A stretch of DNA of 64,000 nucleotides from Candidatus Sysuimicrobiota bacterium (lineage in GTDB: Bacteria; Sysuimicrobiota; Sysuimicrobiia; Sysuimicrobiales; Sysuimicrobiaceae), in assembly GCA_040289515.1 (NCBI GenBank), contig PSLI01000004.1, positions 11,111 to 75,110 of the forward strand. Reading direction: 5' to 3'. This document shows, piece after piece, positions 15,009 through 31,979 of the stretch. The position numbers and the translations under genes were made by a program. Every line of letters starts with the position of its first letter. The first letter of the stretch is position 1. The notes under the pieces are model-generated. The model did not search any database and was not told the DNA's origin. It saw only the letters and a program-made list of their open reading frames with translations.

Positions 15009-15769
15009 AGGGCCGCACGGTGCTGGTCACCCGACCCCAGGATCAGGCGCAGGGGCTACGGACAGCCCTGCAGGCTCTGGGGGCCACGGTGCACGCGGTG
15101 CCCGTGATCCGGATTCGCGCCCTGGAGGACCCAGGTGCGCTGCGCCGCGCCGCGAGCCAGCTGGGGACCTATCACTGGCTGGTGTTCACCAGCCGGAACG
15201 GTGTCTTTGCCCTCGCGGAGCAGCTGCCTTCCCCGGAGCCGCTGCCCGAGGGCGTGCGGGTGGCGTGCATCGGTCCGGCTACCGCGGAAGCCGTCCGGCA
15301 GCTGGGCTGGCCCGTGCACCTGCAGCCCAGCCAGTACGTGGCAGAGTCCCTGGTGGAGGCCTTCCAGGAGGTGGGGATGGGTGGCCGCCGGGTTCTCCTG
15401 GTTCGCGCACAGGAGGCGCGGGGCGCCCTACCCGAGGGCCTGCGCCGCCTGGGAGCCCAGGTGGAGGTGGTCTGCGCGTACCGCACGGAGCCTGCGTACA
15501 ATGAAGCGGGGCGCCTACAGGAGGTGCTGCGGCAGGGTGTGGACGTGACTACTTTCTGCAGCCCTTCCGCGGTGCGGGCCGCGGTGCAGCTGTGCGGGGG
15601 GGCAACGCTGCTCCTTGAGGCTGTGCCCGCGGTGTGCATCGGTCCGGTGACCGCCTCCGCCGCGCTTCGGGCGGGACTCCGGGTTGCGGCGGTAGCGCAC
15701 CCGCACACCCAGGAGGGGCTCGTGGAGGCGGTGGTACGTTTCGTGCGGGGACAAGGGGGGCAACCGTGA
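14984..15769 (+). CDS. hemD: Uroporphyrinogen-III synthase
   Basis: GRTVLVTRPQDQA...LVFTSRNGV. GTG 14984 overlaps the hemC 3' end. Start approximate. Confidence 0.7.
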   Translation: MGAQRAPLEGRTVLVTRPQDQAQGLRTALQALGATVHAVPVIRIRALEDPGALRRAASQLGTYHWLVFTSRNGVFALAEQLPSPEPLPEGVRVACIGPATAEAVRQLGWPVHLQPSQYVAESLVEAFQEVGMGGRRVLLVRAQEARGALPEGLRRLGAQVEVVCAYRTEPAYNEAGRLQEVLRQGVDVTTFCSPSAVRAAVQLCGGATLLLEAVPAVCIGPVTASAALRAGLRVAAVAHPHTQEGLVEAVVRFVRGQGGQP

Positions 15770-18026: not shown

Positions 18027-18763
18027 GCGGACAGGTGCTGGTGGTGATGCCCCTGTACAACGAGGAGGCCACCGTGGAGGAGGTCCTCCAGGCGGTGTTG
18101 CGCTATGCGCCGCCGGGCGCGGACGTACTGGTGGTGGACGACGGGTCCACGGACCGGTCCCCGGAAATCCTGGCGCGCTTCCCCCAGGTGAAGGTGATCC
18201 GCCACCCGGAGAACCGCGGCTACGGCGCGTCCTTAATCGATGGGTTCCGCTATGCCCTGGAGAGGGGCTACGAGGTGGTGGTTACCGTGGACTGCGACGC
18301 CCAGCACGAACCCTACCTCATCCCGGACCTGCTGAGCGCTTTGGAGAACGCGGAGATCGCCTCCGGGAGTCGCTACCTGCCCGGGTCCTCCCGCGGCCAG
18401 GAGCCTCCGCCGGACCGGGTGCGCATCAACCGGGAGGTGACGCAGCGGGTGAACGCCCTCACGGGCTACCAGCTCACCGACGCCTTCTGCGGCTTCAAGG
18501 CGTACCGGGCGGAGGCCCTGCGCCGGCTGCAGCTGGACGAACCCTCGTACGGGATGCCGCTGCAAGTGTGGGTGCAGGCGGCCCGGTGGGGGCTGCGCGT
18601 GCGGGAGATCCCCATCGGTCGCATTTACAAGAACCCGCACCGACGCTTCTGGGGAGGGCTGGACGATCCCGAGGTGCGGCTGCGCTACTACCTGCAGGTG
18701 CTGGAGCGGGAGGCCTCCCGCTGGCTGCGCCAGCCCACCTGCTCGGGGGAGGGAGGTCCGTGA
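18023..18763 (+). CDS. Family-2 glycosyltransferase (DPM1/GtrB-like, polyprenyl-phosphate sugar transferase type)
   Basis: MPLYNEE, VVDDGSTDRS, NRGYG, DCD motifs. ATG overlaps the hemL stop as ATGA. Confidence 0.8.
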   Translation: MSGQVLVVMPLYNEEATVEEVLQAVLRYAPPGADVLVVDDGSTDRSPEILARFPQVKVIRHPENRGYGASLIDGFRYALERGYEVVVTVDCDAQHEPYLIPDLLSALENAEIASGSRYLPGSSRGQEPPPDRVRINREVTQRVNALTGYQLTDAFCGFKAYRAEALRRLQLDEPSYGMPLQVWVQAARWGLRVREIPIGRIYKNPHRRFWGGLDDPEVRLRYYLQVLEREASRWLRQPTCSGEGGP

Positions 18764-19440
18764 GGACGATCCTGGTCCTTGCCCCGCACCCGGACGACGC
18801 GGAGATCGCCATGGGCGGCACCATGGCGGTCCTGGTGGCGCAGGGCTGGCGGGTGGTGATGTGCGACCTGACGGACGGTGAACCCACCCCCGTGGGGACA
18901 CCCGAGCGCAGACGCCAGGAGGCGGAGCAGGCGGCCCGCATCCTCGGGGTGGAGCGTCAGATCCTGGACCTGCCAAACCGTTTCCTGCTGGACGGGGTGG
19001 AGGCCCGCAAGAAGGTGGCCGCGGTGATCCGCGCGGTGCGGCCGGAGTGGCTGTTTGTGCCGTACTGGGAGGACGCACACCCTGACCACGTGCAGGCCGC
19101 AGCCCTGTGCGAGGCGGCACGGTTTTACGCCAAGCTCACCCACACGGACGTCCCGGGAGAGCCGTGGTACCCGCACCGCGTGGTGCACTTCTTCTCCACC
19201 CACTACCGAATGGTTCGCCGTCCCTCCTTCGTGTTCGACATCAGCGACACCCTGGAGCGCAAAATGGAAAGCCTTCGCGCGTACGAGAGCCAGTTCGGAC
19301 CCGAGCGGGGCAAGCAGGCAGTTCTGGAGGCGGTGCTCCACGCGGCTCGCTACTTCGGTTCCCTCGTGGGCGTCCTGTACGGGGAGCCCTTCCTGCTGCG
19401 GGAGGAGCTCGGGGTGCGAAATCTGGAGGCACTGGTGTGA
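18760..19440 (+). CDS. bshB: PIG-L/LmbE-family N-acetylglucosaminyl deacetylase, BshB1-like
   Basis: HPDDAEIAMGGT, CDLTDGE, AHPDH and AYESQF motifs parallel bacillithiol BshB1. GTG overlaps the GT2 stop. Confidence 0.7.
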   Translation: MRTILVLAPHPDDAEIAMGGTMAVLVAQGWRVVMCDLTDGEPTPVGTPERRRQEAEQAARILGVERQILDLPNRFLLDGVEARKKVAAVIRAVRPEWLFVPYWEDAHPDHVQAAALCEAARFYAKLTHTDVPGEPWYPHRVVHFFSTHYRMVRRPSFVFDISDTLERKMESLRAYESQFGPERGKQAVLEAVLHAARYFGSLVGVLYGEPFLLREELGVRNLEALV

Positions 19441-20969
19441 CCCGGTCCGAAGAACTCTCCCTGCCCACCCGCCACGGGGAGGTGCTGTGCGTCCCGGAGT
19501 TTGGCCGCTGGCTGGAGGTGGCGGAGCAAAACGCCCGCAGGCTGGAGTCCCAGCGGGTGCTGCGGGAGCTGCGGGAGCAGGCCCGGCGCGAGCTGGTGCA
19601 GCGCGCGGGAGCACTGCTGGAGCGCTGGGGCCTGCACCGCCCCGAAGTGGGCGCCGGCCCGTGGGTCGGTACGGGCCACCAGCCCGCCCTGTACCACCCT
19701 GGGATCTGGATCCGCACGTGGGCGGTGGCGGCCTGCCAGCAGCGCGGTGCCGTGGGGGTGCACGTGGGGGTGGACTCGGACGAGTGCGAGCGTTTCGGAG
19801 CGCGGGTTCCCCGCCGGGACGACGGCAGGCTGCGGGTAGTGGAGCGCGTCCTGGCAGAGGGGGGCCGGGACGTGCCCTTCGAGTGCCTGCCGGCTCCCGC
19901 AGAAGAGGCCTGGCGCGCCTTCTGCGCACGCCTTCAGGAGGACGTGGCCACCCTGGGGCTTCCGGAGGTTGAAGGGCGCCTGGCGCGCGCGGAGCGGGCC
20001 GGGCTGGCGAGCTTGGCCCGTGCCCGGCACCTGGGCGAATTCGGGGCCGGCCTGCGCCGGCATCTGGAGCTGGACTGCGCGCCGGTCCGGTACCTGGAGG
20101 TGACCGCCTCGGAGCTTTCTAGAACCCGGGCGTTCGCCCGCTTCGCTAGCTGGATCGCGCAGGACGCAGAGCGCTTCTGGGCATGCCACAACCAGGCCCT
20201 GGAGGACTACCGGCGCCAGCAGGACCTGCGGTCGCCCGCGCAGCCGTTCCCCAACCTGCGGCGGGAAGGTGGACGGGTGGAACTACCCTTCTGGCTGGTG
20301 CGGGATGGAGTGCGGCAGCCCGTGTTCGTGCAGCCAAACCGTCCTCCCGTGGCCTTCTGCCGGGGTGCGGCGGTGGGAGAGCTGTCAGAGGAGGGGCTGG
20401 AGGGCCTGCGGCCCCGGGCGGTGACCCTCACCCTGTTCCTGCGCCTGGCGGTGTGCGACCTGTTCGTGCACGGGCTGGGAGGTGCCCGGTACGACCGGGT
20501 TACCGACCGGCTGGTGCGGGAGTTCTTTGACGTGGAACCGCCGCCGTTCGCGGTGCTGACCGCCACCTACCACCTGCCCCTGGCACGGCATCCGGATCCC
20601 CGGGCCGCGTACCAGACCGCCCAGCGCCTGTGGCAGGACCTCCACCACAACCCGGACCGTCACCTTCCACGGGACGGCGAAGTGGCCAACCTGGTGGAGG
20701 AGAAGTGGCGGTGCATCCAGGCCTTGGAAGCACCGGGCCTACCCCGCCGGACCCGCCGGGAGCTCACGCAGCGCATCCGGGCCCTCAACGAGGCGCTCCG
20801 GGCCCGCCTGCAGGACCGAATCCGTCAGGTGGAGGCGGAGCTGGAGAGCCTGCGGCGCGACGTGGAAGAACACCAGGTGGCCGCGGACCGCACCTACCCC
20901 TTTTTCTTGTTCGACCCGGAGCTCCTGCGCACGTACTTCCGGGCGAGGGAGGAAGCGCGTTGCCGGTAG
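19437..20969 (+). CDS. Hypothetical 510-aa protein, possible bacillithiol cysteine-adding enzyme BshC-like
   Basis: By eye it resembles BshC at GTGHQPALYHPG (cf. GGQQAGLLTGPLY), HVGVDSDECE (cf. WVAGEDHDLDE) and LFVHGLGGARY (cf. AFIAGPGEINY). It also has a C-terminal coiled coil, as BshC does. Needs an HMM check. Confidence 0.4.
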   Translation: MTRSEELSLPTRHGEVLCVPEFGRWLEVAEQNARRLESQRVLRELREQARRELVQRAGALLERWGLHRPEVGAGPWVGTGHQPALYHPGIWIRTWAVAACQQRGAVGVHVGVDSDECERFGARVPRRDDGRLRVVERVLAEGGRDVPFECLPAPAEEAWRAFCARLQEDVATLGLPEVEGRLARAERAGLASLARARHLGEFGAGLRRHLELDCAPVRYLEVTASELSRTRAFARFASWIAQDAERFWACHNQALEDYRRQQDLRSPAQPFPNLRREGGRVELPFWLVRDGVRQPVFVQPNRPPVAFCRGAAVGELSEEGLEGLRPRAVTLTLFLRLAVCDLFVHGLGGARYDRVTDRLVREFFDVEPPPFAVLTATYHLPLARHPDPRAAYQTAQRLWQDLHHNPDRHLPRDGEVANLVEEKWRCIQALEAPGLPRRTRRELTQRIRALNEALRARLQDRIRQVEAELESLRRDVEEHQVAADRTYPFFLFDPELLRTYFRAREEARCR

Positions 20970-21040
20970 CACGTCATGCGGAGAGGGTGCGGGCCTCCCC
21001 GGTTTGGGGAACTCGGGCAGCTTCCGGTCCCCCGAGCCCC

Positions 21041-21673
21041 GTGGTCACGGAGGGGCTGGGCCGGCGTTTTGGGCCCGTGGTGGCGCTGCACGACGTCACC
21101 CTGCGGGTACAGCAGGGTCAGTGCCTGCTGCTGGTGGGGCCCAACGGCTCCGGGAAGACCACCCTGTTGCGGGTTCTGGCCACCGCGCTGCGCCCCACGG
21201 AGGGACGCGCGTGGGTGTGGGGCTATGAGGTGACCGCGGAAGGGTGGCGGGTGCGAGAGGTGTGCGCGTACCTGGGCACCGCCCCGGGGGTGTACGGGGC
21301 GCTTTCGGGCTTCGAGAACTTACGCCTGGCCGCGGACCTGTGCGGAAAGCCCGTTGGGCGTGTCCCTGAGCTGCTGGCGCGGGTCGGGCTGATGCCGGCG
21401 GCGCACCGGCTGGTGGCCAGCTACAGCCTCGGGATGCGCCGGCGGCTGGCCCTGGCCCGGGCCTTCCTGCAGGAGCCCCTGGTGGCGCTGTTGGACGAGC
21501 CTTTTGTGGGCCTGGATGAGGAGGGTCGGGAGCTGGTGCGGCAGCTGGTGGAGGAGGTCAAAAGCCGCGCTGGGGCCGTGGTTCTGGCCACTCACGACGG
21601 GGACCGGGCGCGGGGCCTGTACGACCGGGTCGTGTGCCTGGAGGCGGGCAGTTTGCGGGCAGCGGGCGGATGA
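21041..21673 (+). CDS. ccmA: Heme exporter ATP-binding protein CcmA
   Basis: Walker A GPNGSGKTT and ABC signature. Start ambiguous (TTG 20960, GTG 20984 or GTG 21041). Confidence 0.75.
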   Translation: MVTEGLGRRFGPVVALHDVTLRVQQGQCLLLVGPNGSGKTTLLRVLATALRPTEGRAWVWGYEVTAEGWRVREVCAYLGTAPGVYGALSGFENLRLAADLCGKPVGRVPELLARVGLMPAAHRLVASYSLGMRRRLALARAFLQEPLVALLDEPFVGLDEEGRELVRQLVEEVKSRAGAVVLATHDGDRARGLYDRVVCLEAGSLRAAGG

Positions 21674-22323
21674 GAGCAGCTCGCCGCGTCCTGGCCCTGG
21701 TGCGCAAGGATCTGGTGCTGGAGTGGCGGGGCAGGGACGTGCTGGTGCCCGCGGGTGCCTTCGGGCTCGCGGTGTTGCTGGTGCTGGGCCTGGTTTCCGG
21801 CGGCGGGCCGCAGGACGCGCCCACCTTACTGTGGGTTTCTGTGCTGCTGGCCTCCGTGCTGGCGGCGGGCCGCAGCGCGGAGCGGGAAGGAGAGGAGGGA
21901 ACGCTGGAAGTGCTGCTGCTGTACCCGGGCAGCCGCGAGGACCTGTTCTGGGGGCGACACCTGGCCCTGTGCGTGCTGCTGGGAGCGCTGGCTTTGGGCC
22001 TGTGGGCCGCACAGCTGTTCCTGTTCAACGCTCCGGCCCGCGGGTGGCCCGCCGTGCTGCTGGCGGGGACGCTGGCGACAGTGGGGCTGAGTGCGTCGGG
22101 CACCCTGCTGGCGGCCCTGCTGGGCCACGTGCGGGCGGGTCGGCTGCTGTTGCCCTTGCTGTTCTTGCCCACCTCGGTTCCCGTGCTGCTGGCCGGTGTG
22201 CGTCTCACGGAGGCGGCCGCCGCGGGCACCACACTCGGCCCGTGGTGGGGCGTGCTGGTGGTGTTCGACCTGTTGTTCCTGCTGGTGGGTCCCGTGCTGT
22301 TTGAGGTGGCGGTGGAGGGCTAG
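21670..22323 (+). CDS. ccmB: Heme exporter membrane protein CcmB
   Basis: ATG overlaps the ccmA stop as ATGA. Polytopic; CcmB position and length. Confidence 0.75.
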   Translation: MRAARRVLALVRKDLVLEWRGRDVLVPAGAFGLAVLLVLGLVSGGGPQDAPTLLWVSVLLASVLAAGRSAEREGEEGTLEVLLLYPGSREDLFWGRHLALCVLLGALALGLWAAQLFLFNAPARGWPAVLLAGTLATVGLSASGTLLAALLGHVRAGRLLLPLLFLPTSVPVLLAGVRLTEAAAAGTTLGPWWGVLVVFDLLFLLVGPVLFEVAVEG

Positions 22324-22962
22324 GTGCGGGCCTTCGCCATGGGCGCAACGGCGGCGCTGTTGGCCCTGGGGCTGTGGCTGGCCCTGAGAGCGTCTCCCCC
22401 AGACGCTTACCAGGGGGAATACGTGCGGATCATGTACGTGCACGTGCCTGCCGCCGTGTCCAGCTACGCCGCCGCAGCGGTGGCCTGCGTGAGCGGCGCC
22501 CTGTACCTGTGGCGGCGCCGGTCGGAGTACGACGCGTGGGCCCGTGCGGGGGCGGAGCTGGCCAGCTTGTTCGCGGGCCTCACCCTGCTGACCGGGATGC
22601 TGTGGGGCAAGCCCGTGTGGGGTGTGTGGTGGGCGTGGGATGCCCGGCTGGTCTCCACCGCGGTGCTGTTCCTGCTGTACGTGGGTTGCCTGCTGGTGCG
22701 GGACCTGTCGGAGGATCCGGTGCGCGGCCGCCGCCTGGCGGCGGCTTTGGGCGTGGTGGCCTTCCTAGACGTGCCGCTGGTGCACTACTCCGTGGTGTGG
22801 TTCCGAACGCTGCACCAGGGCCCCTCCATTAGACCTGGAGCCGTGCAGATGGCACCGGAGTTTTTGGCCCCCCTGGCGGTGAACGTGCTGGCCTACCTGG
22901 TGCTGTCGGGCTTCCTCCTGGTAGAACGGGCCCGCCTGGCGCGCCTGGAGGCGGAGCGGTGA
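22324..22962 (+). CDS. ccmC: Heme exporter protein CcmC
   Basis: WWD domain LWGKPVWGVWWAWDARL. Confidence 0.8.
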   Translation: MRAFAMGATAALLALGLWLALRASPPDAYQGEYVRIMYVHVPAAVSSYAAAAVACVSGALYLWRRRSEYDAWARAGAELASLFAGLTLLTGMLWGKPVWGVWWAWDARLVSTAVLFLLYVGCLLVRDLSEDPVRGRRLAAALGVVAFLDVPLVHYSVVWFRTLHQGPSIRPGAVQMAPEFLAPLAVNVLAYLVLSGFLLVERARLARLEAER

Positions 22963-23087
22963 GGGCTTGGGGGTGGGTGCTGGCCGCGTACGGATGCGCG
23001 GCCGTGCTGCTCGGAGCTTACGCGTGGCGGTTGTGGCGGCGTCTGGAGCGAGCCTCGGGTGGCCGTGCGAGGGAGGGCGACGCGTGA
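22959..23087 (+). CDS. ccmD: Heme exporter protein CcmD (42-aa small membrane protein, below the ORF-track cutoff)
   Basis: VRAWGWVLAAYGCAAVLLGAYAWRLWRRLE... is a single TM helix. GTG overlaps the ccmC stop. Correct position between ccmC and ccmE. Confidence 0.5.
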   Translation: MRAWGWVLAAYGCAAVLLGAYAWRLWRRLERASGGRAREGDA

Positions 23088-23092
23088 GGCGG

Positions 23093-23485
23093 ATGCGCGT
23101 GCTGTTGGCGGTGCTCCTGACCGCCGGGTCCCTGGGCTACGTGGTGGCCGGAGGGCTGCGGGAGGCGGTGGTGTACTACCTCACGCCCACGGAGGTGCGT
23201 TCCATGCGCCCGGAGCCCCACAGGCCCGTACGGGTGGGCGGGCAGGTACTGCCCGGCTCCCTGCGAAGGGAAGGGCCGGAGGTGCGCTTCATCCTCTGGG
23301 ACGGCCAGACCCAGCTGCCCGTACGCTTCCGGGGTACCGTGGAAGGGCTGCTAGCGGAGGCACAGGGCGCCGTGGTGGAGGGCCGGGTGGTGGAGGGGAT
23401 CCTCCACGCCCGCACCGTGGTGGTCAAGCACTCGGAGGAGTACACCCCGTCCCGAACTCCGCACGACCGCCCCCGCGGACCGTAA
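23093..23485 (+). CDS. ccmE: Cytochrome c-type biogenesis heme chaperone CcmE
   Basis: MRVLLAVLLTAG anchor, YYLTPTEV, VRVGGQV. The usual heme-binding H-x-x-x-Y region appears divergent. Confidence 0.75.
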   Translation: MRVLLAVLLTAGSLGYVVAGGLREAVVYYLTPTEVRSMRPEPHRPVRVGGQVLPGSLRREGPEVRFILWDGQTQLPVRFRGTVEGLLAEAQGAVVEGRVVEGILHARTVVVKHSEEYTPSRTPHDRPRGP

Positions 23486-23540: not shown

Positions 23541-23566
23541 CGGGGGCCACCGAGCCCCCGTTTGCG
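23541..23566 (+). terminator. Terminator-like hairpin after ccmE
   Basis: A perfect 7-bp G/C stem CGGGGGC-cgagc-GCCCCCG followed by TTTGCGTT. Confidence 0.3.
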
Positions 23567-23693
23567 TTCTGGGCCGAGACGAAGAGGAATCCGGGCACCG
23601 GAAGTCAAAGACACACGCCAGCTCCTCGGTCAGGGAGGCAGGTTGCTGCGACGCGAAGCCAGCTGTTCGTGCAACTGCAGGGTCCCAGGGAGC

Positions 23694-24545
23694 TTGCGAC
23701 TCTCTCTGTCGGTGGCGATGGCGGCGTGGGTGCTGGCGGGCTGCCAGCCGTACGTCCGGGTGAGCAGCCCCGTCCGGGAGGTCTACGAGCCCCTGGAGGG
23801 GTTCGCGGTGCGCATGAACTTCATGCCCCGCAAACCCGACGCGGACGGGGGCCGGAAGATCTACGAGGCGCGGTGCGCGGTCTGCCACGGACCGCAGGGG
23901 CGCGGGGACGGGCCCATGGCCCAGCAGCTCACGGCCCCGGAGAAGAACCCGTACACCGACTTTTTGAGCCTGTTCCGCATCCATCGCAAGGCGGAACCGT
24001 TGCCGAGCCGGCCCGCCCGGTTTGACAACCTGGATCAGATGCGGCTAAACGCCCCCTTCGCTATGTTCGAGACCATCGCCCGCGGGCGTCCCCACACCGC
24101 CATGCCCGGGTTCCAGCACCCCGCCTACGGTGCCACGGACGGCGGCGAGCCGCGCCTACGGGATCAGGAGATCTGGGACGTGCTGTTCTGGGAGTGGAGC
24201 CGCACCACCAGCCGGGAGCGCCTGGTGCAGGGCCGGCGGATCTACAACCAGCTGTGCGCCCGCTGCCACGGCGTAGGAGGGGACGGGAATGGGCCGGAGG
24301 CGGGCCGCATCCGGCAGCAAGTGTGGACGTGGGCGCGGGGCGTGGGGCCGGGTGTTTTCACGGACCGGGACTGGATGGCGTACCGCAAGCCCACGGAGCT
24401 GTACCAGCGGATTTCAGAAGGGGTGCGGCGGCGAGGGCTGGAGCTGATGCCGGCCTACGCCGACAAGCTGTCGGCGGACCAGATCTGGACCGTGGTAGAG
24501 TACCTGTGGACGTTCGTGTACACACCCCCGAAGGACCTGCGGTAG
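23694..24545 (+). CDS. Diheme c-type cytochrome, probable lipoprotein
   Basis: Two CxxCH motifs (CAVCHG, CARCHG). A TTG start at 23694 gives a lipobox LAGC. The alternative ATG at 23718 is in the same frame. Confidence 0.75.
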   Translation: MRLSLSVAMAAWVLAGCQPYVRVSSPVREVYEPLEGFAVRMNFMPRKPDADGGRKIYEARCAVCHGPQGRGDGPMAQQLTAPEKNPYTDFLSLFRIHRKAEPLPSRPARFDNLDQMRLNAPFAMFETIARGRPHTAMPGFQHPAYGATDGGEPRLRDQEIWDVLFWEWSRTTSRERLVQGRRIYNQLCARCHGVGGDGNGPEAGRIRQQVWTWARGVGPGVFTDRDWMAYRKPTELYQRISEGVRRRGLELMPAYADKLSADQIWTVVEYLWTFVYTPPKDLR

Positions 24546-24556
24546 GAGGTGGCCGG

Positions 24557-25201
24557 GTGGATCGTCGCACGTTCTTAAAGGCCCTGAGCGCGCTGCCCGT
24601 GGTGGGGGCTGTGGGAGCCTTCCTGGCGCCCTTGCTGCGCTACCTGAAGCCGAACCTGGAACGGGGACTGGGCCTGCCGCAGGGGAAGCTACCGCCCGAC
24701 CTGGCGGAGGGGGACCTCCCCACGGGCGAGCCGCTGCCCATCGCTACCTTGGAGGAGCTGCGGGAACCGTGGTCCAGCAAGTTCTTCGTGTTCACGCAGA
24801 AGTACCCACAGTACACCCCGGAGCTGGCCAAGGCGGCCACGGTGCCGGGGGTGGCCATCAAGCTGCCGTGGAAGCTGCCCTTTCCGGGCTACAAGGGAGG
24901 GAAGGAGCCCACGGACATCGTGATCTTCTCCCGCATCTGTCCGCACCTGGGCTGCATCTTCAACTACGTGCCCAACTGGCGGGAGGTGACGGCGGGCTAC
25001 GGGGGCTACGTACCGCCGGAGGACCGGCGGCACGGGCTGCTCGCGTGCCCGTGCCACCTGTCCATCTACGATCCCGCGGACCGGGAACTTCCTGGCCGGG
25101 TGCTGTCGGGCCCCGCGCCCCGGCCGCCCCGCTACTTCACCTACGAGATCCGGGGCGGGGTGATCGTGGTCACCGGGGCGGAACCCGGCGGGATCGCCTG
25201 A
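24557..25201 (+). CDS. Rieske [2Fe-2S] protein with Tat signal
   Basis: RRTFLKAL twin-arginine motif. CPHLGC and CPCHLS cluster-binding boxes. RBS AGGAGG. Confidence 0.85.
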   Translation: MDRRTFLKALSALPVVGAVGAFLAPLLRYLKPNLERGLGLPQGKLPPDLAEGDLPTGEPLPIATLEELREPWSSKFFVFTQKYPQYTPELAKAATVPGVAIKLPWKLPFPGYKGGKEPTDIVIFSRICPHLGCIFNYVPNWREVTAGYGGYVPPEDRRHGLLACPCHLSIYDPADRELPGRVLSGPAPRPPRYFTYEIRGGVIVVTGAEPGGIA

Positions 25202-25214
25202 GGGAGCCGGAGCC

Positions 25215-26363
25215 GTGTGGGACCGGTTGCGAGAGTGGTTCCGGGAGCGCAAGGAAAAGCTGGACCTGTTCGACGAGACCCACGTCGACCGCCAGGACAA
25301 CCCCCTGTACATCCTCGGCCAGATCGTCTACTTCGCGTGGATCGCCGTGGTGGTAAGCGGCATCCTCCTCATGATCTGGTACGAGCCTACCACCCACGGC
25401 GCGTACAACTCCATTCTGCGCATCCAGCGGGAGGTGCCCCTGGGTTGGCTGACCCGCGGCGTGCACAAGTACGGCGCGGACATGCTGATCCTGGCCATCA
25501 CCCTGCGCATCTACCGGATGTATTTCCTGGGAGAGTACAAACGGCCCAACGAACTGTCGTGGATGATCCTGTTCGGCTCCCTGGTGCTGGCCATGATCTC
25601 CGGGCTCACGGGCTACCTGCTCATCTGGAACCAGCGGGCCTTCTGGGCGGCCAAGGTGGTGCTCACGGTGGCCGTGTACCTGGACCAGCTCCCCCTGATC
25701 GGCCAAACGCGGTTCGGCAGCGCCATCGCCTTCGCCTTCCTGGGCGGGCCGGCGGAGGGGCAGGGAACCCTCACCCGGTTCTACGCCATCCACTTCGGGA
25801 TCTCCGCGCTGCTGCTGGTGGCCTCGGAGGTGTACTTCTACTTCACCCGCCGGCGCCGGTTCGTCCTGTCCCCCACGGCCCTGGTGATCCTGCTGGCTAT
25901 GCTGGTGGTAACGAGCTACGTGTTCCCCGCAGAGATGGGCCGCCGGGCCGACCCCAACCGCACGCCCCTGCCCATCCTGTCCGACTGGTACTTCCTGGCC
26001 CTGTACCAGTACGTGAAGTATACCCCGCCCCTGTGGGCGGGCCTGGGCCCCGGGCTTTTGATCGCTTACGGCATGCTGGTCCCCTTTTTGGACCGCAGCA
26101 AGGGCCGCAGGCCCTCCGAGCGCCCCTTCTTCACGGTGGTGGGGGTCATGGCCCTGACGTACTTCCTCGTGTTCACGGCCCTCATCCTGTTCAACATCGC
26201 GGTGATCGGCCGGGATCCCCACGTGGTCCTACTGGTGACCGCGGCGACTTTGACCCTGGGCCTGGTGCTGGAGTTCCGCTACCGGCGACGGAAGAAGCTG
26301 GCGGAGCTCGCCGCACCGACTCCCGCGCCGCGCGCGGCGCCAGCTCGGGCCGCGGCGGGGTGA
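25215..26363 (+). CDS. Cytochrome b (full-length b6 plus subunit-IV-like) lacking both heme bH histidine ligands
   Basis: Collinear with cytochrome b6 (GWLTRGVHKYGADM..., TRFYAIHFG...). Helix B has H84 but R98 at the second His position. Helix D has H193 but Y207/F208 where the second His is expected. SDWY sits in place of PEWY. Confidence 0.85.
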   Translation: MWDRLREWFRERKEKLDLFDETHVDRQDNPLYILGQIVYFAWIAVVVSGILLMIWYEPTTHGAYNSILRIQREVPLGWLTRGVHKYGADMLILAITLRIYRMYFLGEYKRPNELSWMILFGSLVLAMISGLTGYLLIWNQRAFWAAKVVLTVAVYLDQLPLIGQTRFGSAIAFAFLGGPAEGQGTLTRFYAIHFGISALLLVASEVYFYFTRRRRFVLSPTALVILLAMLVVTSYVFPAEMGRRADPNRTPLPILSDWYFLALYQYVKYTPPLWAGLGPGLLIAYGMLVPFLDRSKGRRPSERPFFTVVGVMALTYFLVFTALILFNIAVIGRDPHVVLLVTAATLTLGLVLEFRYRRRKKLAELAAPTPAPRAAPARAAAG

Positions 26364-26370
26364 GGGGGCG

Positions 26371-26634
26371 TTGGAAGTCGTGCGGTTCGCGGCAAGCTTC
26401 GGTGTGGCCGTGTTGAGCCTGCACGGAGCCTGGCAGGCATTCGGGCTGGCTTGGGCGGACCCACGGGCGGAGCGCTGGCTCGTCCTGGGCGTGTACCTGG
26501 CCGCCCTGCTGGCCTCAGGAGCATGGGCGGGCTACCTCGTCTACGCCGCGGACCGCAGGGCGGGACGGGTGCGGCGACGGGTGGGGCTGTACGAGCGGTG
26601 GCTGGCAACGCCTCGGGGAGGGAGGGGGCCGTGA
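26371..26634 (+). CDS. Small two-TM membrane protein
   Basis: 87-aa hydrophobic ORF immediately after cytochrome b. Confidence 0.4.
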   Translation: MEVVRFAASFGVAVLSLHGAWQAFGLAWADPRAERWLVLGVYLAALLASGAWAGYLVYAADRRAGRVRRRVGLYERWLATPRGGRGP

Positions 26635-26831
26635 GGAAGGACCGCAGCACATGGCACTTCGCCCTGGCCGGTTTCCTGGCGGTGCTGGCCCTAGCCGGAG
26701 TGGCCCTTATGGTGTACGGGGAGTGGTTTGACCAGCGGCTGGTGGCCTCCGGGGCCCTGGGCGTGATCCTGGTTTTGTACGCGGCCATCGTAGTGCTGTT
26801 CCGGAAGGCGGGTCTCACCGCGGAGGAGTAG
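26631..26831 (+). CDS. Small two-TM membrane protein
   Basis: 66 aa, VRKDRSTWHFALAGFLAVLALAGVALMVYGEW... GTG overlaps the preceding stop as GTGA. Confidence 0.4.
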   Translation: MRKDRSTWHFALAGFLAVLALAGVALMVYGEWFDQRLVASGALGVILVLYAAIVVLFRKAGLTAEE

Positions 26832-26832
26832 G

Positions 26833-28008
26833 GTGTACCGACGGCTGCTTTTGAGCCTGCAGAGCGCCACCCTGAGGCTGGACACCGTCCTAAACCGCGT
26901 CCTGCCCCAGGACTTCAACCCCCTGTACTACACGGGCGGGCTTGCGAACCTGTTCCTCACCATCCTGGTGGTGTCGGGGATCCTCATTTTCCTGTACTAC
27001 GAGCCCAGCCTGGAGGGCGCGTACGCCTCCGTGGAGTTCCTGACCCGGGACGTGCCCTACGGGGTGGTGTTCCGGGGGATCCACCGGTACGCCGCGGACG
27101 CCTACATGGTGGCGATCCTGCTGCACCTGTTCCGCAACTGGTTCACGGACCGCTACCGGGAGGCGCGGGACAGCCAGTGGCTGTCGGGCATGTTCCTGCT
27201 GGTGGTCTCGGGCTTTGCGGGCTTCACGGGCTACCTGCTGGTGTGGGACGAGCGAGCCCAGCTGCTTACAAGCCTCACGGCGCAGGCCCTACGGTCGGTG
27301 CCCCTGGTGGGAGGCTGGCTGGCCCGGGTGTTCCTGGGCGGGCCGGGTGTGAGCGACACGACCCTGTCCCGGTTCCTGTACCTGCATGTGGGGCCCGCCA
27401 TGACCGTGTACGTGCTCCTGTGGTGGCACTACGTACGCCTGCGCCACCCCAAGATCTGGCCTCCCGCGGTGTGGGTGCTGTTCAGCCTGGGCCTGCTGTT
27501 CATCCTCGCCTCCGCGCTGCCCGCGGCCAGCGGCCGTCCCGCGCAGCCGGGCGCGACCCCGGGGGGGTTCGCGGTGGATTGGTTCTTCCTCTGGCCGTAC
27601 GTGCTCGCCCGGTGGCTGGCGCCAGCCTGGGCCATGGTCCTGGTGGGAGCCCTTGTGGCGTACGGCATGGTCATCCCCTACACCCTACGGGAGACGCCCG
27701 AGCAGCGCGGCCTGCGGGCCCTGGGCCAGGCGGTGGTGGTGGAGGAGAACTGCACCGGCTGCGAGCTGTGCTACTACGACTGCCCGTACAACGCCATCTA
27801 CATGGTACCCAGTCCCTACCCCGGCAAGAGCCGGGCCGCGGCCAACCGCAAGCTGCTGGCGGTGGTGGTGGACTCCCGGTGTGTGGAGTGCGGGATCTGC
27901 ATCGGCGCCTGCCCGTTCGAGGCGCTGGAGCTGCCCAGGATGCTGGAAAAGGACGTGCAGCAGAGAATCCGGCGGGGCGCCCAGGTGGAGGCGCCCGTCC
28001 CTTCGTGA
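26833..28008 (+). CDS. Cytochrome b N-terminal domain (four His ligands intact) fused to a C-terminal 2x[4Fe-4S] ferredoxin domain
   Basis: H84/H98 and H185/H199 are at canonical spacing in helices B and D. The C-terminus carries CTGCELCYYDCP and CVECGICIGACP. Confidence 0.8.
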   Translation: MYRRLLLSLQSATLRLDTVLNRVLPQDFNPLYYTGGLANLFLTILVVSGILIFLYYEPSLEGAYASVEFLTRDVPYGVVFRGIHRYAADAYMVAILLHLFRNWFTDRYREARDSQWLSGMFLLVVSGFAGFTGYLLVWDERAQLLTSLTAQALRSVPLVGGWLARVFLGGPGVSDTTLSRFLYLHVGPAMTVYVLLWWHYVRLRHPKIWPPAVWVLFSLGLLFILASALPAASGRPAQPGATPGGFAVDWFFLWPYVLARWLAPAWAMVLVGALVAYGMVIPYTLRETPEQRGLRALGQAVVVEENCTGCELCYYDCPYNAIYMVPSPYPGKSRAAANRKLLAVVVDSRCVECGICIGACPFEALELPRMLEKDVQQRIRRGAQVEAPVPS

Positions 28009-28017
28009 GGCGCAGCC

Positions 28018-28452
28018 ATGGGGACAGCACCGGAGCGCACCCCGCAAGCCAATCCCCAAGGACCGGCGCGGGTGGTGGGGTTTTTGTGTGACTGGGCGGT
28101 GCGCAGCGAGGGACTGCTGAACGCGGACGACACCCTGGTGGGCATGCCCCACGTGACCGTGATCCGGGTGCCCTGTTCCGGTTTCGTAAAGCCCGCGTGG
28201 CTGGAGCTGGCCCTGCGCAGTGGTGCTGCGGGCACCTTCGTGTGCGGGTGCCCCATGGGCGACTGCCTGAACCGGGAGGGTAACTGGATCATGGAGGGCC
28301 GCATCGACCAGCTGCGCAAGCGGCTGAGCCGCCAGAAGGTGGATCCCGACCGGGTGGCCTTTTTCGCCTTCGGGCTGCACGAGCGGGAGGCCTTCCTTCA
28401 AGCCGTGGCGGAGTTCGTGAACAGGCTCGCCGGATCCGGAGGGAACCGGTGA
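28018..28452 (+). CDS. MvhD/FlpD-like iron-sulfur protein (methyl-viologen-reducing hydrogenase delta-subunit family)
   Basis: FLCDWA, VIRVPCSGFV and FVCGCPMGDC cysteine pattern typical of PF02662-type proteins. Confidence 0.65.
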   Translation: MGTAPERTPQANPQGPARVVGFLCDWAVRSEGLLNADDTLVGMPHVTVIRVPCSGFVKPAWLELALRSGAAGTFVCGCPMGDCLNREGNWIMEGRIDQLRKRLSRQKVDPDRVAFFAFGLHEREAFLQAVAEFVNRLAGSGGNR

Positions 28453-28565
28453 TGCGGTTCGGCCCGAAGCGGTGGAAGACGTACCTGTGGTACGTTGTCT
28501 TCTACCTCCTGTTCTTCGCCCTGCTCCTGTTCGTAGCCGCCTTCGGGTTGGTGGCGGAGGCGTAG
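28452..28565 (+). CDS. Unannotated 37-aa single-TM peptide
   Basis: MRFGPKRWKTYLWYVVFYLLFFALLLFVAAFGLVAEA. ATG overlaps the MvhD-like stop as TGATG. It is absent from the ORF track because it is under 60 aa. A CcoQ-like position. Confidence 0.4.
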   Translation: MRFGPKRWKTYLWYVVFYLLFFALLLFVAAFGLVAEA

Positions 28566-28579
28566 GGCGGGAGGGTCGC

Positions 28580-29974
28580 ATGCTGGTGTGGATGTTCACG
28601 GACGAGCGGTGGAGTTCTGCCCGCAGGTTCCTGTACGCGGGCACCCTGTGGGCGCTGGTGGCCCTGGCGTACGAGGCCCTGGCGGCCGCCCAGCGGGCGT
28701 GGCCGGCCCTGCTGTCGGAGTTTCCATGGGCTTCCCACGGGCGGGTGGTGGCCTTAAGCCACGACCTGTGGGTTTTCGGCTTTTTGTCCCAGCTGCTGGT
28801 GGCCTCGGCCCTGCGGGTGATGGGGCAGACGGACCGGGAGGGGATCTGGAGCGAGCCCGTAGCGCACCTGGCTGTTTGGCTGTGGAACCTAGCCCAGGCC
28901 CTGAGCTGGTGGTGGCTGTCGGTGGGCTGGACCCGGGGAAGGCCGCTGGCGGAGGCCCCGTGGCCGGTGGACGGGCTGCGTGTGCTGGCCGCTTTGGCGC
29001 TGTGGTGGGTGGTGCGCAACAGCCTGGTTCGGTCGTCCCGGCGGGAAGCTGGCTTGGCCCTGGTGGCGGTGGCCTTCGCGGGTCTGCCGCTGGTGCTGGT
29101 GCTGGGCAAGGGGCTGTTCTCGCCCTTCGACAACCCTTACCACGGCCTCCTGGACGCCCTGAGCCAGGCCTTCCTGCGGGCGGGCTTGGTGTGGCTGTGG
29201 CTAGTACCTCTGGCGGGCGGTGTGTCTTTGTACGTGCTGTCCGCCCTTACGGGCCGGCCGGGTCTGTCGGAGGGCATGGGCCTTTCGGCGGTGGTGGGGC
29301 TGGTGAGCTTTGGCGCCCTGGCGGGGCCTGCGGAGTTTGTATGGGGCCCGGTCCCCTTCTGGGTGCAGACCGTGGGCACCGTGGCGCGGGGCCTGCTGCT
29401 GCTGCCCGCGGCGACCCTCCTGGCCGGCGTGGTTCGGTCCCTGGACGGCCATTGGCGCAGCCTGGGGAACCACCCGGGCGTGGTGCTCACCCTGGCGGGA
29501 TGGCTCGCGGTGTTCTGCGGGGCGGCGGCGGACGCCCTCGCCTCCCTGGTGGGGCCCAGCCGGCTGGTGCACCTGTCCCTGTGGGGTGAGGGTGTTCGGG
29601 TGCTCCTGCTGACCGGCGCGGGTGCGGTGGCCGCCGGATGCGTGTACCTGTTGACCCCTCATGTGCTGGGCCGATCCCTGGTCAGCAGGGCTGCCGCGTG
29701 GCGCCACCTCTGGCTGGTGGTGGTGGGATGGTCGCTTTCCGCCCCCTTCCTTCTGCTGGGCGGGTTGGTGCAGGGTGCGGTGTGGGTCACGGGCACAGTC
29801 CCCTTCGCGCACGCGGTGCAGGCCGTGCGGCCCTTGCTGGGGGGGGGCTTTGTGGGCCTGCTGGTGGCGTGGGCCGCGCAGGGAGTGTTCGCGTGGAATG
29901 TGTTCCTGACCGCGGACTCCGGGGAGCCCGTGCCCGCCGCAGAGCAGGAGCTGGCCGCGGTGGCGGGGTCCTGA
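28580..29974 (+). CDS. Polytopic (about 12 TM) membrane protein in the CcoN/NorB position, with no canonical heme-copper-oxidase metal ligands
   Basis: ATG 28580 is preceded by GGGAGGG. 464 aa, Trp-rich. The single His residues do not form the HH and HxH ligand pattern of HCO subunit I. Confidence 0.55.
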   Translation: MLVWMFTDERWSSARRFLYAGTLWALVALAYEALAAAQRAWPALLSEFPWASHGRVVALSHDLWVFGFLSQLLVASALRVMGQTDREGIWSEPVAHLAVWLWNLAQALSWWWLSVGWTRGRPLAEAPWPVDGLRVLAALALWWVVRNSLVRSSRREAGLALVAVAFAGLPLVLVLGKGLFSPFDNPYHGLLDALSQAFLRAGLVWLWLVPLAGGVSLYVLSALTGRPGLSEGMGLSAVVGLVSFGALAGPAEFVWGPVPFWVQTVGTVARGLLLLPAATLLAGVVRSLDGHWRSLGNHPGVVLTLAGWLAVFCGAAADALASLVGPSRLVHLSLWGEGVRVLLLTGAGAVAAGCVYLLTPHVLGRSLVSRAAAWRHLWLVVVGWSLSAPFLLLGGLVQGAVWVTGTVPFAHAVQAVRPLLGGGFVGLLVAWAAQGVFAWNVFLTADSGEPVPAAEQELAAVAGS

Positions 29975-29989: not shown

Positions 29990-30451
29990 GTGGTGAGGGA
30001 TCCCGTAGCGCACCTGGTGCGACTGGCGGTGGCGGCCGTGCTGTGCGGGTTCGTGGCCACCGTGCTCCTGCCAGCGTTGGACCCCGCGGTGCGCACGGCG
30101 CGGGCAGCGCCCCTGTCGGCGCAGGCGGCGCGGGGACGGTGGGTGTACGCCCGGGAGGGGTGTGCGGCCTGTCACACCCAGCAGGTGCGTACGGTGGAGG
30201 CGGGGTTCGGCATGGTGCGCCGGAGGGGCGACGTGGGAGAGGCTTCCTCGCCAAGCCAGTACGCGGGGCAGGACCCGGCCCTGTTGGGGCGGCTGCGGAT
30301 GGGGCCGGACCTGACGCACGTGGCCTCCCGTGCCTCCGCGGAAGAGCTGCGTTCGCTAGTTCGGTCCGGCACGGGAGGGATGCCCGCGTACCGGCACCTG
30401 CCCGATCCGGAACTGGCGGACCTCGTGGCGTACCTGCTGACCCTGCGATAG
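29990..30451 (+). CDS. CcoO/NorC-like membrane-anchored monoheme cytochrome c
   Basis: GRWVYAREGCAACHTQQVR matches the CcoO GxxVYxxEGCxxCHSQ signature. A downstream ...GPDLTHV...GMPAY box and an N-terminal TM anchor are present. Confidence 0.6.
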   Translation: MVRDPVAHLVRLAVAAVLCGFVATVLLPALDPAVRTARAAPLSAQAARGRWVYAREGCAACHTQQVRTVEAGFGMVRRRGDVGEASSPSQYAGQDPALLGRLRMGPDLTHVASRASAEELRSLVRSGTGGMPAYRHLPDPELADLVAYLLTLR

Positions 30452-30459
30452 GAGGAAGG

Positions 30460-30999
30460 ATGGAGGCCCAAACGCCGCGACCGTCCCGCTGGCTGGCGCT
30501 GCTGTACGTGCTGCTGCCTCTGTGGGCAGTGACGTACCTGTTCGTGGCGGGAGGACTGGTGGCTCCGGAGGTCCGGCCGGTGGCCCGGAACGTGGAGGGC
30601 GTCTCGGCGGGTGTCGGCGCGGCACCGGACGGGTCCGAGCAGGTGCTGGGGATCCTCGAGGTGGTGCCTGAGGACGCGCGGGACGACCAGCCGCCCCGTC
30701 CGGTTACCGCGGCCATGCTGGCGCAGGCGAAGGCACGGTACGACACCCTGTGCGCCGTCTGCCACGGCCCGGAAGGCCGGGGCGACGGCCCCGCGGGCGC
30801 GGCTCTTAACCCCAAGCCGGTCAACTTCCATTTCCGCGCTTTCCAGGAGCGCATGCCCGTGGGTGCCACGCACTGGGTGATCAAGAACGGCCTGGGTAAC
30901 ACCGCCCGCCGCAGCGGGATGCCCGCCTTTGGCCAGCTGCCTGACGACCAGATCTGGGCCCTGGTGGAGTACATACGGCGGCTGGGCCGCCGGCCATGA
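30460..30999 (+). CDS. Membrane-anchored monoheme class-I cytochrome c
   Basis: CAVCHG heme site, GMPAF Met-ligand region, N-terminal TM helix. RBS GGAGGAAGG. Confidence 0.75.
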   Translation: MEAQTPRPSRWLALLYVLLPLWAVTYLFVAGGLVAPEVRPVARNVEGVSAGVGAAPDGSEQVLGILEVVPEDARDDQPPRPVTAAMLAQAKARYDTLCAVCHGPEGRGDGPAGAALNPKPVNFHFRAFQERMPVGATHWVIKNGLGNTARRSGMPAFGQLPDDQIWALVEYIRRLGRRP

Positions 31000-31979
31000 G
31001 CGCTCCCGCCAACCCCGACGTGGCCCTGGCGTCCGCGTATGCACCGGTTCGGGAGGACTTGGAGCGCCTGCAGGCCCTCCTGCAGGAGGAGCTCGCGTCC
31101 CACGACCCCTTCCTGCGCGAGCTGGTGTCCCACGTGCTGCAGACGAGGGGCAAGATGGTGCGGCCGGCTCTGGCGTTCCTCTGCGCGCGGCTCGCGGGCG
31201 GAGGAGGCGCCCACCGGGACCTGGTGGCCGCGGCGGTGGAGCTCATCCACGTGGCCAGCCTGATCCACGACGACGTCATCGACGAGGCGGACCGGCGCCG
31301 GGGCCAGGCCACCCCCAACGCCCGCTGGGGCAACCACGTGGCGGTGCTTCTGGGCGACTACCTGTTCAGCAAGGCTTTCCACCTCCTCAGCCGGGTGGGC
31401 CGGGACGACGTGGCCAGCCGGGTGGCGTTCGCCACCGTGCGCATGAGTCAGGCGGAGCTGCTGCAGGTGAAGTATGGCAGTACCCCCCACACGGACGAGT
31501 CGGTGTACTTCGCCATCGTGGAGGGGAAGACCGCCCAGCTGGTCTCCTCCGCGTGTGCGGGAGGGGTCCTGGTGGGCGGGGGTGACGGCGGCCTGGCGGA
31601 TCGGCTTGGCACCTTTGGGCTGCACTGGGGAGTAGCCTTCCAGATCACCGACGACACCCTGGACCTCACCAGCGACCCGGAGGTCCTGGGCAAGCCCATC
31701 GGTAGCGACGTGCGGGGGGGCAAGGTCACCCTACCCCTCATCCACGCCCTGCGCCACGCGGACTCCCAAGACCGCCAGCGGCTGGAGGCTTGGATCCGCT
31801 TGGGGGAGCTGGAACCCTTGCGGCAGGCCCTGGAGCGGTCCGGATCCCTCGCCTACGCCCTGGAGGTGGCCCGGCAGCATGCCCGCAGGGCCCTGCGGAT
31901 CCTGGACACCCTGCCCAGCAGCCCCGAACGCGACAGCCTCGCAGCCCTTACGGAGTTCGTGGTCTCCCGCCACCATTAG
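30996..31979 (+). CDS. Polyprenyl diphosphate synthase (hepta/octaprenyl type)
   Basis: LIHDDVIDEADRRRG and FQITDDTLD DDxxD boxes. ATG overlaps the previous stop. Confidence 0.85.
   Translation: MSAPANPDVALASAYAPVREDLERLQALLQEELASHDPFLRELVSHVLQTRGKMVRPALAFLCARLAGGGGAHRDLVAAAVELIHVASLIHDDVIDEADRRRGQATPNARWGNHVAVLLGDYLFSKAFHLLSRVGRDDVASRVAFATVRMSQAELLQVKYGSTPHTDESVYFAIVEGKTAQLVSSACAGGVLVGGGDGGLADRLGTFGLHWGVAFQITDDTLDLTSDPEVLGKPIGSDVRGGKVTLPLIHALRHADSQDRQRLEAWIRLGELEPLRQALERSGSLAYALEVARQHARRALRILDTLPSSPERDSLAALTEFVVSRHH

Follow-up and report, generated by a model that had tools for sequence, protein, structure and literature searches.

The DNA analysed here, called the window, is a stretch of 64,000 nucleotides from contig PSLI01000004.1 (assembly GCA_040289515.1, positions 11,111 to 75,110) of an organism belonging to CSP1-3 ('Candidatus Sysuimicrobiota'). 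It contains a forward-strand operon in which genes for a dihaem c-type cytochrome and a Rieske iron-sulfur (Fe-S) protein are followed by a cytochrome b, cytb1, two small membrane proteins, a second cytochrome b carrying a ferredoxin domain (cytb2::Fd), an MvhD-like Fe-S protein and genes resembling parts of a cbb3-type oxidase. The subject of this report is cytb1. It retains both histidine ligands of the outer haem, bL (bp), and has lost both ligands of the inner, cytoplasm-side haem, bH (bn); the subunit very probably binds haem bL only. The gene is as follows.

25215-26363, forward strand: cytb1, a full-length cytochrome b of 382 amino acids with eight transmembrane (TM) helices and a GTG start.

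Both Pfam domains of cytochrome b are found in cytb1 above their cutoffs (PF00033, 102.1 bits against 27.2; PF00032, 32.2 bits against 20.7). In a phmmer search of all PDB chains the best matches were cytochrome b6 chains (E ~1e-33), followed by bc1 cytochromes b and, over the C-terminal part, by subunit IV of b6f. The first-pass annotation of the locus, made from the sequence alone, had described the protein as collinear with cytochrome b6 plus subunit IV, and these matches bear it out. The single 382-residue chain spans both and is not split into 4-TM and 3-TM subunits as in b6f. Ile33 stands at the position of b6 Cys35, leaving the cysteine of haem ci (cn) without a counterpart. The AlphaFold2 model of the single chain is of low confidence (pLDDT, the predicted local distance difference test, 63.7; pTM, the predicted template-modelling score, 0.61); Foldseek matched it over its whole length to full-length cytochrome b chains with template-modelling scores of about 0.55-0.59. 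Against the NCBIfam model 'cytochrome b6' the protein scored 138.9 for a cutoff of 325, and none of the 10 operon proteins reached any curated NCBIfam cutoff for bc, b6f or cbb3 subunits.

Helix B of cytb1, RGVHKYGADMLILAITLRIYRMY, aligns without a gap to the b6 segment in the phmmer alignment. His84 (codon 25464-25466) falls in the column of b6 His86, a ligand of haem bp/bL, and Arg98 (CGC, 25506-25508) in the column of b6 His100, a ligand of haem bn/bH. In helix D, His193 (25791-25793) occupies the column of b6 His187, and both bL ligands are kept. The column of b6 His202 falls on Tyr207 if one gap is allowed and on Phe208 at the b6 spacing of 15 residues; the two are encoded by TAC TTC at 25833-25838. 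These residues and codons are those given in the first-pass annotation. Cytochromes b are recognised by four histidines in helices B and D, of which cytb1 has the bL pair only. The sole histidine beyond residue 193 is His336, which is non-conserved.

A shifted register was considered and rejected on the gapless helix-B alignments to b6 and to cytb2 and on the predicted helix boundaries. The paralogue cytb2 of the same operon is 33% identical to cytb1 over 305 residues, its helix B aligns without a gap and with identical numbering, and it carries His84 and His98 where cytb1 has His84 and Arg98. Residues 77-104 and 185-211 of cytb1 form continuous helices in the low-confidence AlphaFold2 model, placing both substitutions within helices B and D, with no register shift. 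A MAFFT alignment of 152 sequences set the canonical helix-D histidine on Glu205, whereas phmmer and plain spacing lead to Tyr207 or Phe208. None of the alignments made has histidines at both second-ligand columns.

The same substitutions are found throughout a family. A search of 1.84 billion cluster representatives returned 4966 cytochrome b relatives, and the Arg-type cytb1 family forms a small, sharply separated group at the head of that list. An alignment of 93 cytb1 relatives (42-96% identity; from CSP1-3/Sysuimicrobiota, Armatimonadota, Anaerolineae and Melainabacteria) was compared with 117 full-length canonical cytochromes b found among the best 150 matches. Among the 93 family members the helix-B bH position holds Arg 91 times and Lys twice, against His in 117/117 canonical proteins, a split far beyond chance. 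Only His84 and His193 are invariant histidines of the family. Position 207 is Tyr in 40 members, Phe in 35, Leu in 8, His in 7 and Arg in 2. The best 120 database clusters (64-95% identity) all have His84, Arg98, His193 and the motif SDWY, and none has a histidine at 207 or 208. Eighty genome loci share the pattern H...R / H...E-x-[YF] / LPILSDWYFLA, including Fimbriimonadaceae, one metagenome-assembled genome (MAG) of Anaerolineae and about 20 Melainabacteria/Vampirovibrionales genomes at 42-49% identity; the nearest match is the MAG 'Candidatus Tepidifontimicrobium thermophilum', with 96% amino-acid identity. Orthologues thus carry the substitutions in the clusters, the loci and the family alignment alike, and the loss of the bH site in cytb1 is a conserved family trait under selection.

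Two simpler explanations were rejected. Recent decay to a pseudogene does not agree with a pattern fixed in 120 clusters and 80 loci down to 42% identity, with a conserved quinol-oxidation (Qo) site. Alternative histidine ligands are excluded by the lack of any further histidine conserved among the 93 members.

The pocket of the lost haem has been remodelled. Three of the four haem-packing glycines are kept in cytb1, short of the full set: the bL-side Gly49 and Gly133 are invariant in the family, and Gly35 of helix A is present in 92/93. The fourth is the bH-packing glycine of helix C, the equivalent of bovine Gly116. It is present in 117/117 canonical proteins; the family has Ala (43), Leu (17), Ser (15), Gly (11), Phe (5) or Cys (1), and cytb1 of the window has Leu119 (25569-25571). 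Glu205 (25827-25829), two residues before the lost helix-D ligand, is found in 93/93 members and is lacking in canonical cytochromes b. Seven members keep a histidine at 207; position 207 is therefore taken to be the ancestral helix-D ligand site, Glu205 is a separate family-specific residue, and the helix-B change came first. Arg98 and the invariant Glu205 probably fill and stabilise the empty bH pocket, and they may form a buried ion pair that replaces the haem. Arg101, whose equivalent binds a bH propionate in canonical proteins, is likewise present in 93/93 members despite the lost haem.

The invariance of Arg101, together with the near-invariance of Gly35 and the histidine at 207 in 7/93 members, could be taken to mean that a haem is still held in the bH pocket by unconventional ligation, through Tyr207, Glu205, a histidine of a small subunit, or in a five-coordinate state. 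Two Rieske-adjacent cytochromes b, P0188 (L086:6550-8110) and P0233, also pair a helix-B Arg at the bH site with a retained helix-D histidine. Such ligation is nevertheless highly improbable. Arg is not a haem ligand, position 207 varies among Tyr, Phe, Leu, His and Arg, the bH-packing glycine is replaced by Leu, Ala, Ser or Phe, and the small open reading frames (ORFs) of L074, the only other locus compared, contain nothing that corresponds to the histidines of the small proteins S1 and S2. P0188 and P0233 occur with multihaem c-type cytochromes and NiFe-hydrogenase-type cytochromes b and are unrelated to the cytb1 family; judging by their sequences, the inner-haem site seems to have been modified in them independently.

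The genes around cytb1 that bear on its function are the following.

23562-24545, forward strand: dihaem c-type cytochrome with two CxxCH motifs (CAVCH, CARCH); the exact start codon is uncertain.
About 24560-25201, forward strand: Rieske [2Fe-2S] protein with CPHLGC and CPCH boxes; listed as ORF 24194-25201.
26371-26634, forward strand: S1, small hydrophobic protein of 87 amino acids; an ORF with a third-codon-position GC content (GC3) of 0.83.
26631-26831, forward strand: S2, small 2-TM membrane protein of 66 amino acids with a GTG start and a GGAGG-rich ribosome-binding site.
26833-28008, forward strand: cytb2::Fd, about 470 bp downstream of cytb1; PF00033 (108 bits) plus Fer4 families.
28018-28452, forward strand: MvhD/FlpD-like Fe-S protein with five Cys; PF02662, 87.6 bits (cutoff 22.3).

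The first-pass annotation had placed cytb1 downstream of an intact Rieske protein and a dihaem cytochrome c, and both are present as described. The dihaem cytochrome matched PF00034 (73 bits) and PF13442 (69.6 bits) over two stretches each; its gene is kept upstream of the Rieske gene in related loci, and the protein is likely the high-potential acceptor of the Rieske cluster. The Rieske gene is the only one of the operon and stops 13 bp upstream of cytb1. Its product has a twin-arginine-translocation-type N-terminus (RRTFLK) and one TM anchor, and its PF00355 match is weak, 16.9 bits and under the cutoff of 20.3.

S1 is 35-71% conserved in CSP1-3 loci (tblastn) and is probably a small subunit of the complex. 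The GTG start of S2 overlaps the stop of S1 (GTGA), and the last ~80 residues of the ORF at 26451-26831 show ~70% conservation among close relatives. A pair of small ORFs is likewise found at this position in Vampirovibrio L074 and in L079, L083, L088 and L081, and not in L082, the near-duplicate of L081, which suggests that S1 and S2 are conserved small subunits without family assignment.

The second cytochrome b, cytb2, has six TM helices, all four haem ligands (His84, His98, His185, His199) and the bH-packing glycine. Its C-terminus is a 2x[4Fe-4S] ferredoxin domain with eight Cys. The four His and eight Cys are each at least 95% conserved in a set of 68 sequences (the window plus 67 genome loci). 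Since the chain has six helices and its N-terminus is placed in the cytoplasm, the predicted site of the Fe-S domain is the cytoplasmic face of the membrane, beside haem bH. The MvhD-like protein is presumed to be a cytoplasmic electron adaptor that docks on the ferredoxin domain of cytb2. In distant relatives an MvhD-like tail is present on 45/57 cytb::Fd ORFs (fusion confirmed by Pfam in L157 and L120); the MvhD-like protein is therefore a true partner of the Fe-S domain.

In several phyla cytb1, cytb2, a single Rieske gene and an MvhD-like gene are found as a linked set. Where a locus has enough sequence, cytb1 has cytb2::Fd downstream (59/60), cytb2 is followed by MvhD (58/59) and a Rieske gene directly precedes cytb1 (75/76). 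The order in Melainabacteria/Vampirovibrio is CcoN, CcoO/P, cytochrome c, Rieske, cytb1, two small ORFs, cytb2::Fd and MvhD, with the same His/Arg pattern, and the operon adjoins cbb3-type oxidase genes in both Melainabacteria and Fimbriimonadaceae. Locus L088 has the same genes in the usual order. A metagenome scan with a cytb2 profile added 25 window-type loci of the same architecture.

The ef-loop motif of cytb1 is SDWY (25980-25991) where PEWY is expected, as the first-pass annotation had pointed out. PDWY, PVWY and PPWF are other variants of this motif. SDWY is at least 95% conserved within LPILSDWYFLA in the 93 members; relative to PEWY, it has Ser for Pro and keeps an acidic residue, the Trp and the Tyr. 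When cytb1 and cytb2 from the same 68 sequences were compared by column entropy, helices A-D were conserved to a similar degree and the Qo site was not. The cd segment has an entropy of 0.28 bits in cytb1 (15/20 columns at least 95% conserved) versus 1.61 bits in cytb2 (4/20), and the ef segment 0.31 bits (16/21 columns) versus 1.82 bits (1/21). The Qo-site segments of cytb1 are almost invariant. In relatives of cytb2 from loci where no Rieske gene was detected, the corresponding motif is DWFY (D in 66/66, W in 64/66), whereas the Trp survives in only 27/68 cytb2 proteins of window-type operons. The cytb2 quinol site is thus relaxed where cytb1 is present, just as bH has been lost from cytb1 where cytb2 is present.

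This reciprocal specialisation suggests a natural heterodimer. The reading favoured here, to which we give an even chance, is that cytb1 is functional, binds bL only and forms a natural heterodimeric Rieske/cytochrome b core together with cytb2::Fd; this reading draws on the genomic pattern and on analogy with engineered bc1 complexes. Quinol would be oxidised at the Qo site of cytb1, the one Rieske gene serving a single active Qo site. The first electron would pass to the Rieske cluster, the c-type cytochromes and an oxidase, which in the Melainabacteria operons is of the cbb3 type. The second would reduce haem bL of cytb1, cross to the bL haem of cytb2 where the two subunits meet, and continue through bH and the two [4Fe-4S] clusters to the MvhD-like protein and a cytoplasmic acceptor. 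In the variant operon of L083 (see below) the acceptor path would include an NAD(P)-binding flavoprotein. As for the oxidase side in Sysuimicrobiota, PMC11604079 reports coxABC to be widespread.

Engineered complexes provide the precedent. The bc-type cytochromes b are dimers with the two bL haems near enough for electron exchange, and according to PMC4152375 inter-monomer transfer between them can sustain turnover. In Rhodobacter bc1, with bH knocked out (H212N) in one monomer and the Qo site in the other, photosynthetic growth was still possible via the bL-bL bridge, and symmetric bH knock-outs did not support growth. A working cytb1 homodimer is therefore disfavoured.

The first-pass annotation had concluded that the electrons cannot cross the membrane by the usual route from bL to bH to the quinone-reduction (Qi) site. 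This stands within the cytb1 subunit and probably fails for the whole enzyme: a transmembrane route through the complex is most likely, because the partner cytb2 has four histidines and bL-bL transfer can sustain turnover. Its overall reading likewise holds for the subunit and is incomplete for the complex, as the neighbouring cytb2::Fd (26833-28008) and MvhD-like genes had been overlooked.

A stronger form of the heterodimer is tentative and clearly less probable than the heterodimer itself. It holds that the heterodimer is obligate, that bL-bL transfer is the sole productive route, and that the electron passing through the ferredoxin domain and MvhD reduces a cytoplasmic carrier, ferredoxin-like or NAD(P)+, with no Q cycle. 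It would apply to Melainabacteria, Armatimonadota, CSP1-3 and some Chloroflexota. If true, the enzyme would be a complex III that bifurcates electrons from quinol and is coupled to an oxidase.

Relatives of cytb2::Fd are also found away from cytb1. Besides the window-type loci, the metagenome scan found 55 further loci with such relatives at 31-38% identity. No Rieske-motif ORF or Arg-type cytochrome b was detected in them, on fragments of 1.5-15 kb. This Rieske-less family spans L115-L169 (for example L157:6980-8503 and L120:4397-8587). In L157 and L120, both of which were annotated, cytb::Fd::MvhD adjoins SCO1 and haem-copper oxidase genes. Some of the loci hold a second cytochrome b alongside; that of L120 has fused Fer2-FAD-NAD(P) modules.

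Several points weigh against the heterodimer. The contact between cytb1 and cytb2 is drawn from genomics and the engineered-bc1 analogy, and the single-chain model has a pLDDT of only 63.7. The 55 loci with relatives of cytb2::Fd suggest that the cytb::Fd::MvhD module can probably work alone. Conversely, L079 and L081 carry a cytb1-type gene and two small ORFs with no adjacent cytb2; at least two such loci exist, the upstream sequence of L081 being cut. From its sequence the quinol site of cytb2 appears relaxed rather than demonstrably dead, since a conserved Asp249 and the G-Y-x3-W-D stretch are retained. Finally, by our own reasoning, delivery of a low-potential electron to cytoplasmic Fe-S clusters would be opposed by the membrane potential.

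Most of these points would fit two separate enzymes encoded side by side, a (cytb1)2-Rieske-cytochrome c complex and a (cytb2::Fd)2-MvhD oxidoreductase. The cytb1 homodimer would oxidise quinol without a Q cycle and send both electrons to the high-potential chain, its haem bL being a transient store or a structural haem, and the membrane-anchored cytb2 enzyme would link the quinone pool to a cytoplasmic redox partner. The Rieske-less modules, often found by haem-copper oxidase genes, the loci with cytb1 and no adjacent cytb2, and the Asp249 and partly kept cd segment of cytb2 all speak for such an arrangement. It is unlikely all the same. Because symmetric loss of bH abolishes bc1 function in vivo, as PMC4152375 reports, a cytb1 homodimer would need unprecedented bypass chemistry, and its bL electron has no known exit. 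The invariance of the bL ligands and of the glycines on the bL side argues that this haem is in use. The co-linearity of the genes is near-universal across phyla and is retained under changed gene order, and the Qo relaxation of cytb2 is seen only with cytb1 present.

A changed gene order is found in a variant operon of a low-GC organism with a single Rieske gene (L083:946-8471, with L084; the context of P0142). Here the Rieske gene is followed by cytb2::Fd, FlpD, a Fer4 protein, an AsrA-like Fer4_22 protein, a PyrK/AsrB-like protein with NAD_binding_1 and DHODB_Fe-S_bind domains, a cytb1-like protein and two small TM proteins. The cytb1-like protein is 686 amino acids long, of the Arg type, with the motif PDWY and a charged insert of ~300 residues in the A-B loop. 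The inserted Fe-S proteins and NAD(P)-binding flavoprotein point to a pyridine-nucleotide or ferredoxin-level partner.

Such a partner could also be a donor. The same heterodimer would then run in reverse, with electrons from NAD(P)H or ferredoxin fed in by way of MvhD and the Fe-S domain, taken up by haem bH of cytb2 and delivered to the Qo site of cytb1, where they would help to reduce quinone or drive reverse flow from cytochrome c. This direction is quite improbable, and less probable than any reading above except unconventional haem ligation. It draws on the flavoprotein of L083 and on L120, in which cytb::Fd::MvhD has as its neighbour a cytochrome b with fused Fer2-FAD-NAD modules; electron movement from the cytoplasm outwards would, as we reason, be favoured by the membrane potential, and the abstract of PMC11604079 predicts Sysuimicrobiota to be chemoautotrophs on H2 or sulfide. 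The operon of the window, however, has no NAD(P) module, and the cbb3-type oxidase genes beside the operon in Melainabacteria and Fimbriimonadaceae suit forward quinol oxidation.

Compared with the canonical cytochromes b of bc1, b6f and Gram-positive bc complexes, cytb1 shares the fold, the order of PF00033 and PF00032, the bL ligands, the bL-side glycines, the upstream Rieske gene and a Qo motif with an acidic residue (SDWY versus PEWY or PDWY). It differs in the loss of both bH ligands and of the bH-packing glycine and in the gain of Glu205. From b6f it further differs in having no haem ci cysteine (Ile33) and in not being split into b6 and subunit IV. What is new here is a conserved cytochrome b within the known Rieske/cytochrome b complexes that lacks the four-histidine feature and has the fold, the domains, the Rieske adjacency and the bL ligands.

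The cytoplasmic branch has analogues outside the bc fold. In QmoABC, HdrDE and NarGHI a dihaem membrane cytochrome b wires an outer quinol site to cytoplasmic Fe-S clusters, and QmoB has an MvhD-like domain. Their cytochromes b are of the NarI/HdrE type, not of the bc fold, and these enzymes have no Rieske protein and no Qo-type bifurcating site.

A close functional likeness is to the cross-inactivated bc1 complexes engineered as fusions or from two plasmids (Ekiert et al. 2014, PMC4152375; Czapla et al. 2013, PMC4330944). In these, one cytochrome b is Qo-active without bH, its partner has bH and an impaired Qo site, and turnover depends on bL-bL transfer; they are laboratory mutants of a homodimer and their electrons end at the Qi site. 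Here the asymmetry is natural, between two diverged genes (33% identity), the bH subunit carries an Fe-S domain, and the heterodimer is a proposal.

In aerobic Melainabacteria a 'Complex III/IV fusion' operon has been noted, its genes being treated as b6f subunits PetB/PetC (PMC6349859, Matheus Carnevali et al. 2019, who cite Soo et al.); it belongs to the same gene family and operon type as that of the window. The window lineage differs in that its CcoN copy has lost all metal ligands. The passages of PMC6349859 that were consulted do not mention the missing bH ligand, the second cytochrome b or the Fe-S/MvhD module.

In anammox bacteria, Rieske/cytochrome b complexes include an NAD(P) oxidoreductase subunit (Kustd1480-1485 and Kuste4569-4574; PMC12954380). 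There too the low-potential electron is proposed to leave the inner haem through Fe-S clusters for a cytoplasmic module and not for Qi, and the L083 variant of the cytb1 family also has an NAD(P)-binding flavoprotein. The anammox complexes are modelled as symmetric homodimers, each monomer carrying haems bP, bN and cN, whereas in the present pair bN is missing from one subunit and it is the other that bears the fused Fe-S domain; both schemes are proposals. The open-access full texts searched contain no description of a bH-less cytochrome b of the cytb1 type or of a natural heterodimeric bc core, and the complex is not discussed in the consulted passages of the Sysuimicrobiota paper (PMC11604079).

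A conserved single-haem cytochrome b beside a ferredoxin-fused one would surprise specialists and makes the role of inter-monomer transfer testable. To our knowledge, bL-bL transfer in complex III has so far been tested only with engineered mutants; a natural enzyme with this "bus bar" as its sole route would, if confirmed, settle its physiological use and give a tractable system. It would also add a new output of the Qo site, a low-potential electron to cytoplasmic Fe-S carriers, so far only proposed, for anammox bacteria. The genes of this operon type in Melainabacteria have been read as cytochrome b6f subunits and used in arguments on the ancestry of respiration and photosynthesis in Cyanobacteria. 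They are a distinct, laterally distributed family with the inner haem lost in one subunit, and these arguments need revisiting. For annotation, pipelines that score "complex III present" by PetB/QcrB matches will mis-describe these organisms.

The remaining genes of the operon lie downstream of the MvhD-like gene.

28472-29974, forward strand: CcoN-like protein (resembling cbb3 oxidase subunit I) with 12 TM helices; PF00115, 69 bits; the start may be Met37.
29990-30451, forward strand: CcoO/FixO-like monohaem cytochrome c (CAACH); PF02433, 49 bits, and PF13442, 42 bits.
30460-30999, forward strand: membrane-anchored monohaem cytochrome c (CAVCH); PF13442 and PF00034.

When the CcoN-like protein is aligned to 3mk7_A and 9g6b_A, none of the six canonical histidines that ligate haem b, haem b3 and CuB is present; at the first ligand site the multiple alignment shows one His one residue off register. 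In a comparison of the ligand columns over 26 orthologues, the same six-ligand loss was seen in nine orthologues of the window's subclade (46-76% identity), and the operon copies of Melainabacteria and Fimbriimonadaceae retain all six histidines. Most other CSP1-3 loci have no CcoN-like gene. Membership in the oxidase family of the Rieske-less loci was rejected: the COX1 proteins of L120 and L157 matched with E values of 0.007 and 0.12, and the intact Vampirovibrio CcoN with 130 bits (25% identity). By its sequence, the protein is a conserved cofactor-less relic. Among close relatives the membrane-anchored cytochrome c at 30460-30999 shows 84-91% identity.

Genes for cofactor supply surround the operon. 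A long ORF at 19107-20969 on the forward strand lies between haem-biosynthesis and ccm genes; its C-terminal 497 amino acids (19476-20969), the only part scanned, gave no Pfam match at E <= 0.001. Upstream of the operon (window 12790-23485, forward strand) lie hemA, hemC, hemB and hemL, then ccmA, ccmB, ccmC and ccmE. Directly downstream, a polyprenyl diphosphate synthase for the quinone side chain is encoded at 30996-31979 on the forward strand, a position kept in most CSP1-3 loci.

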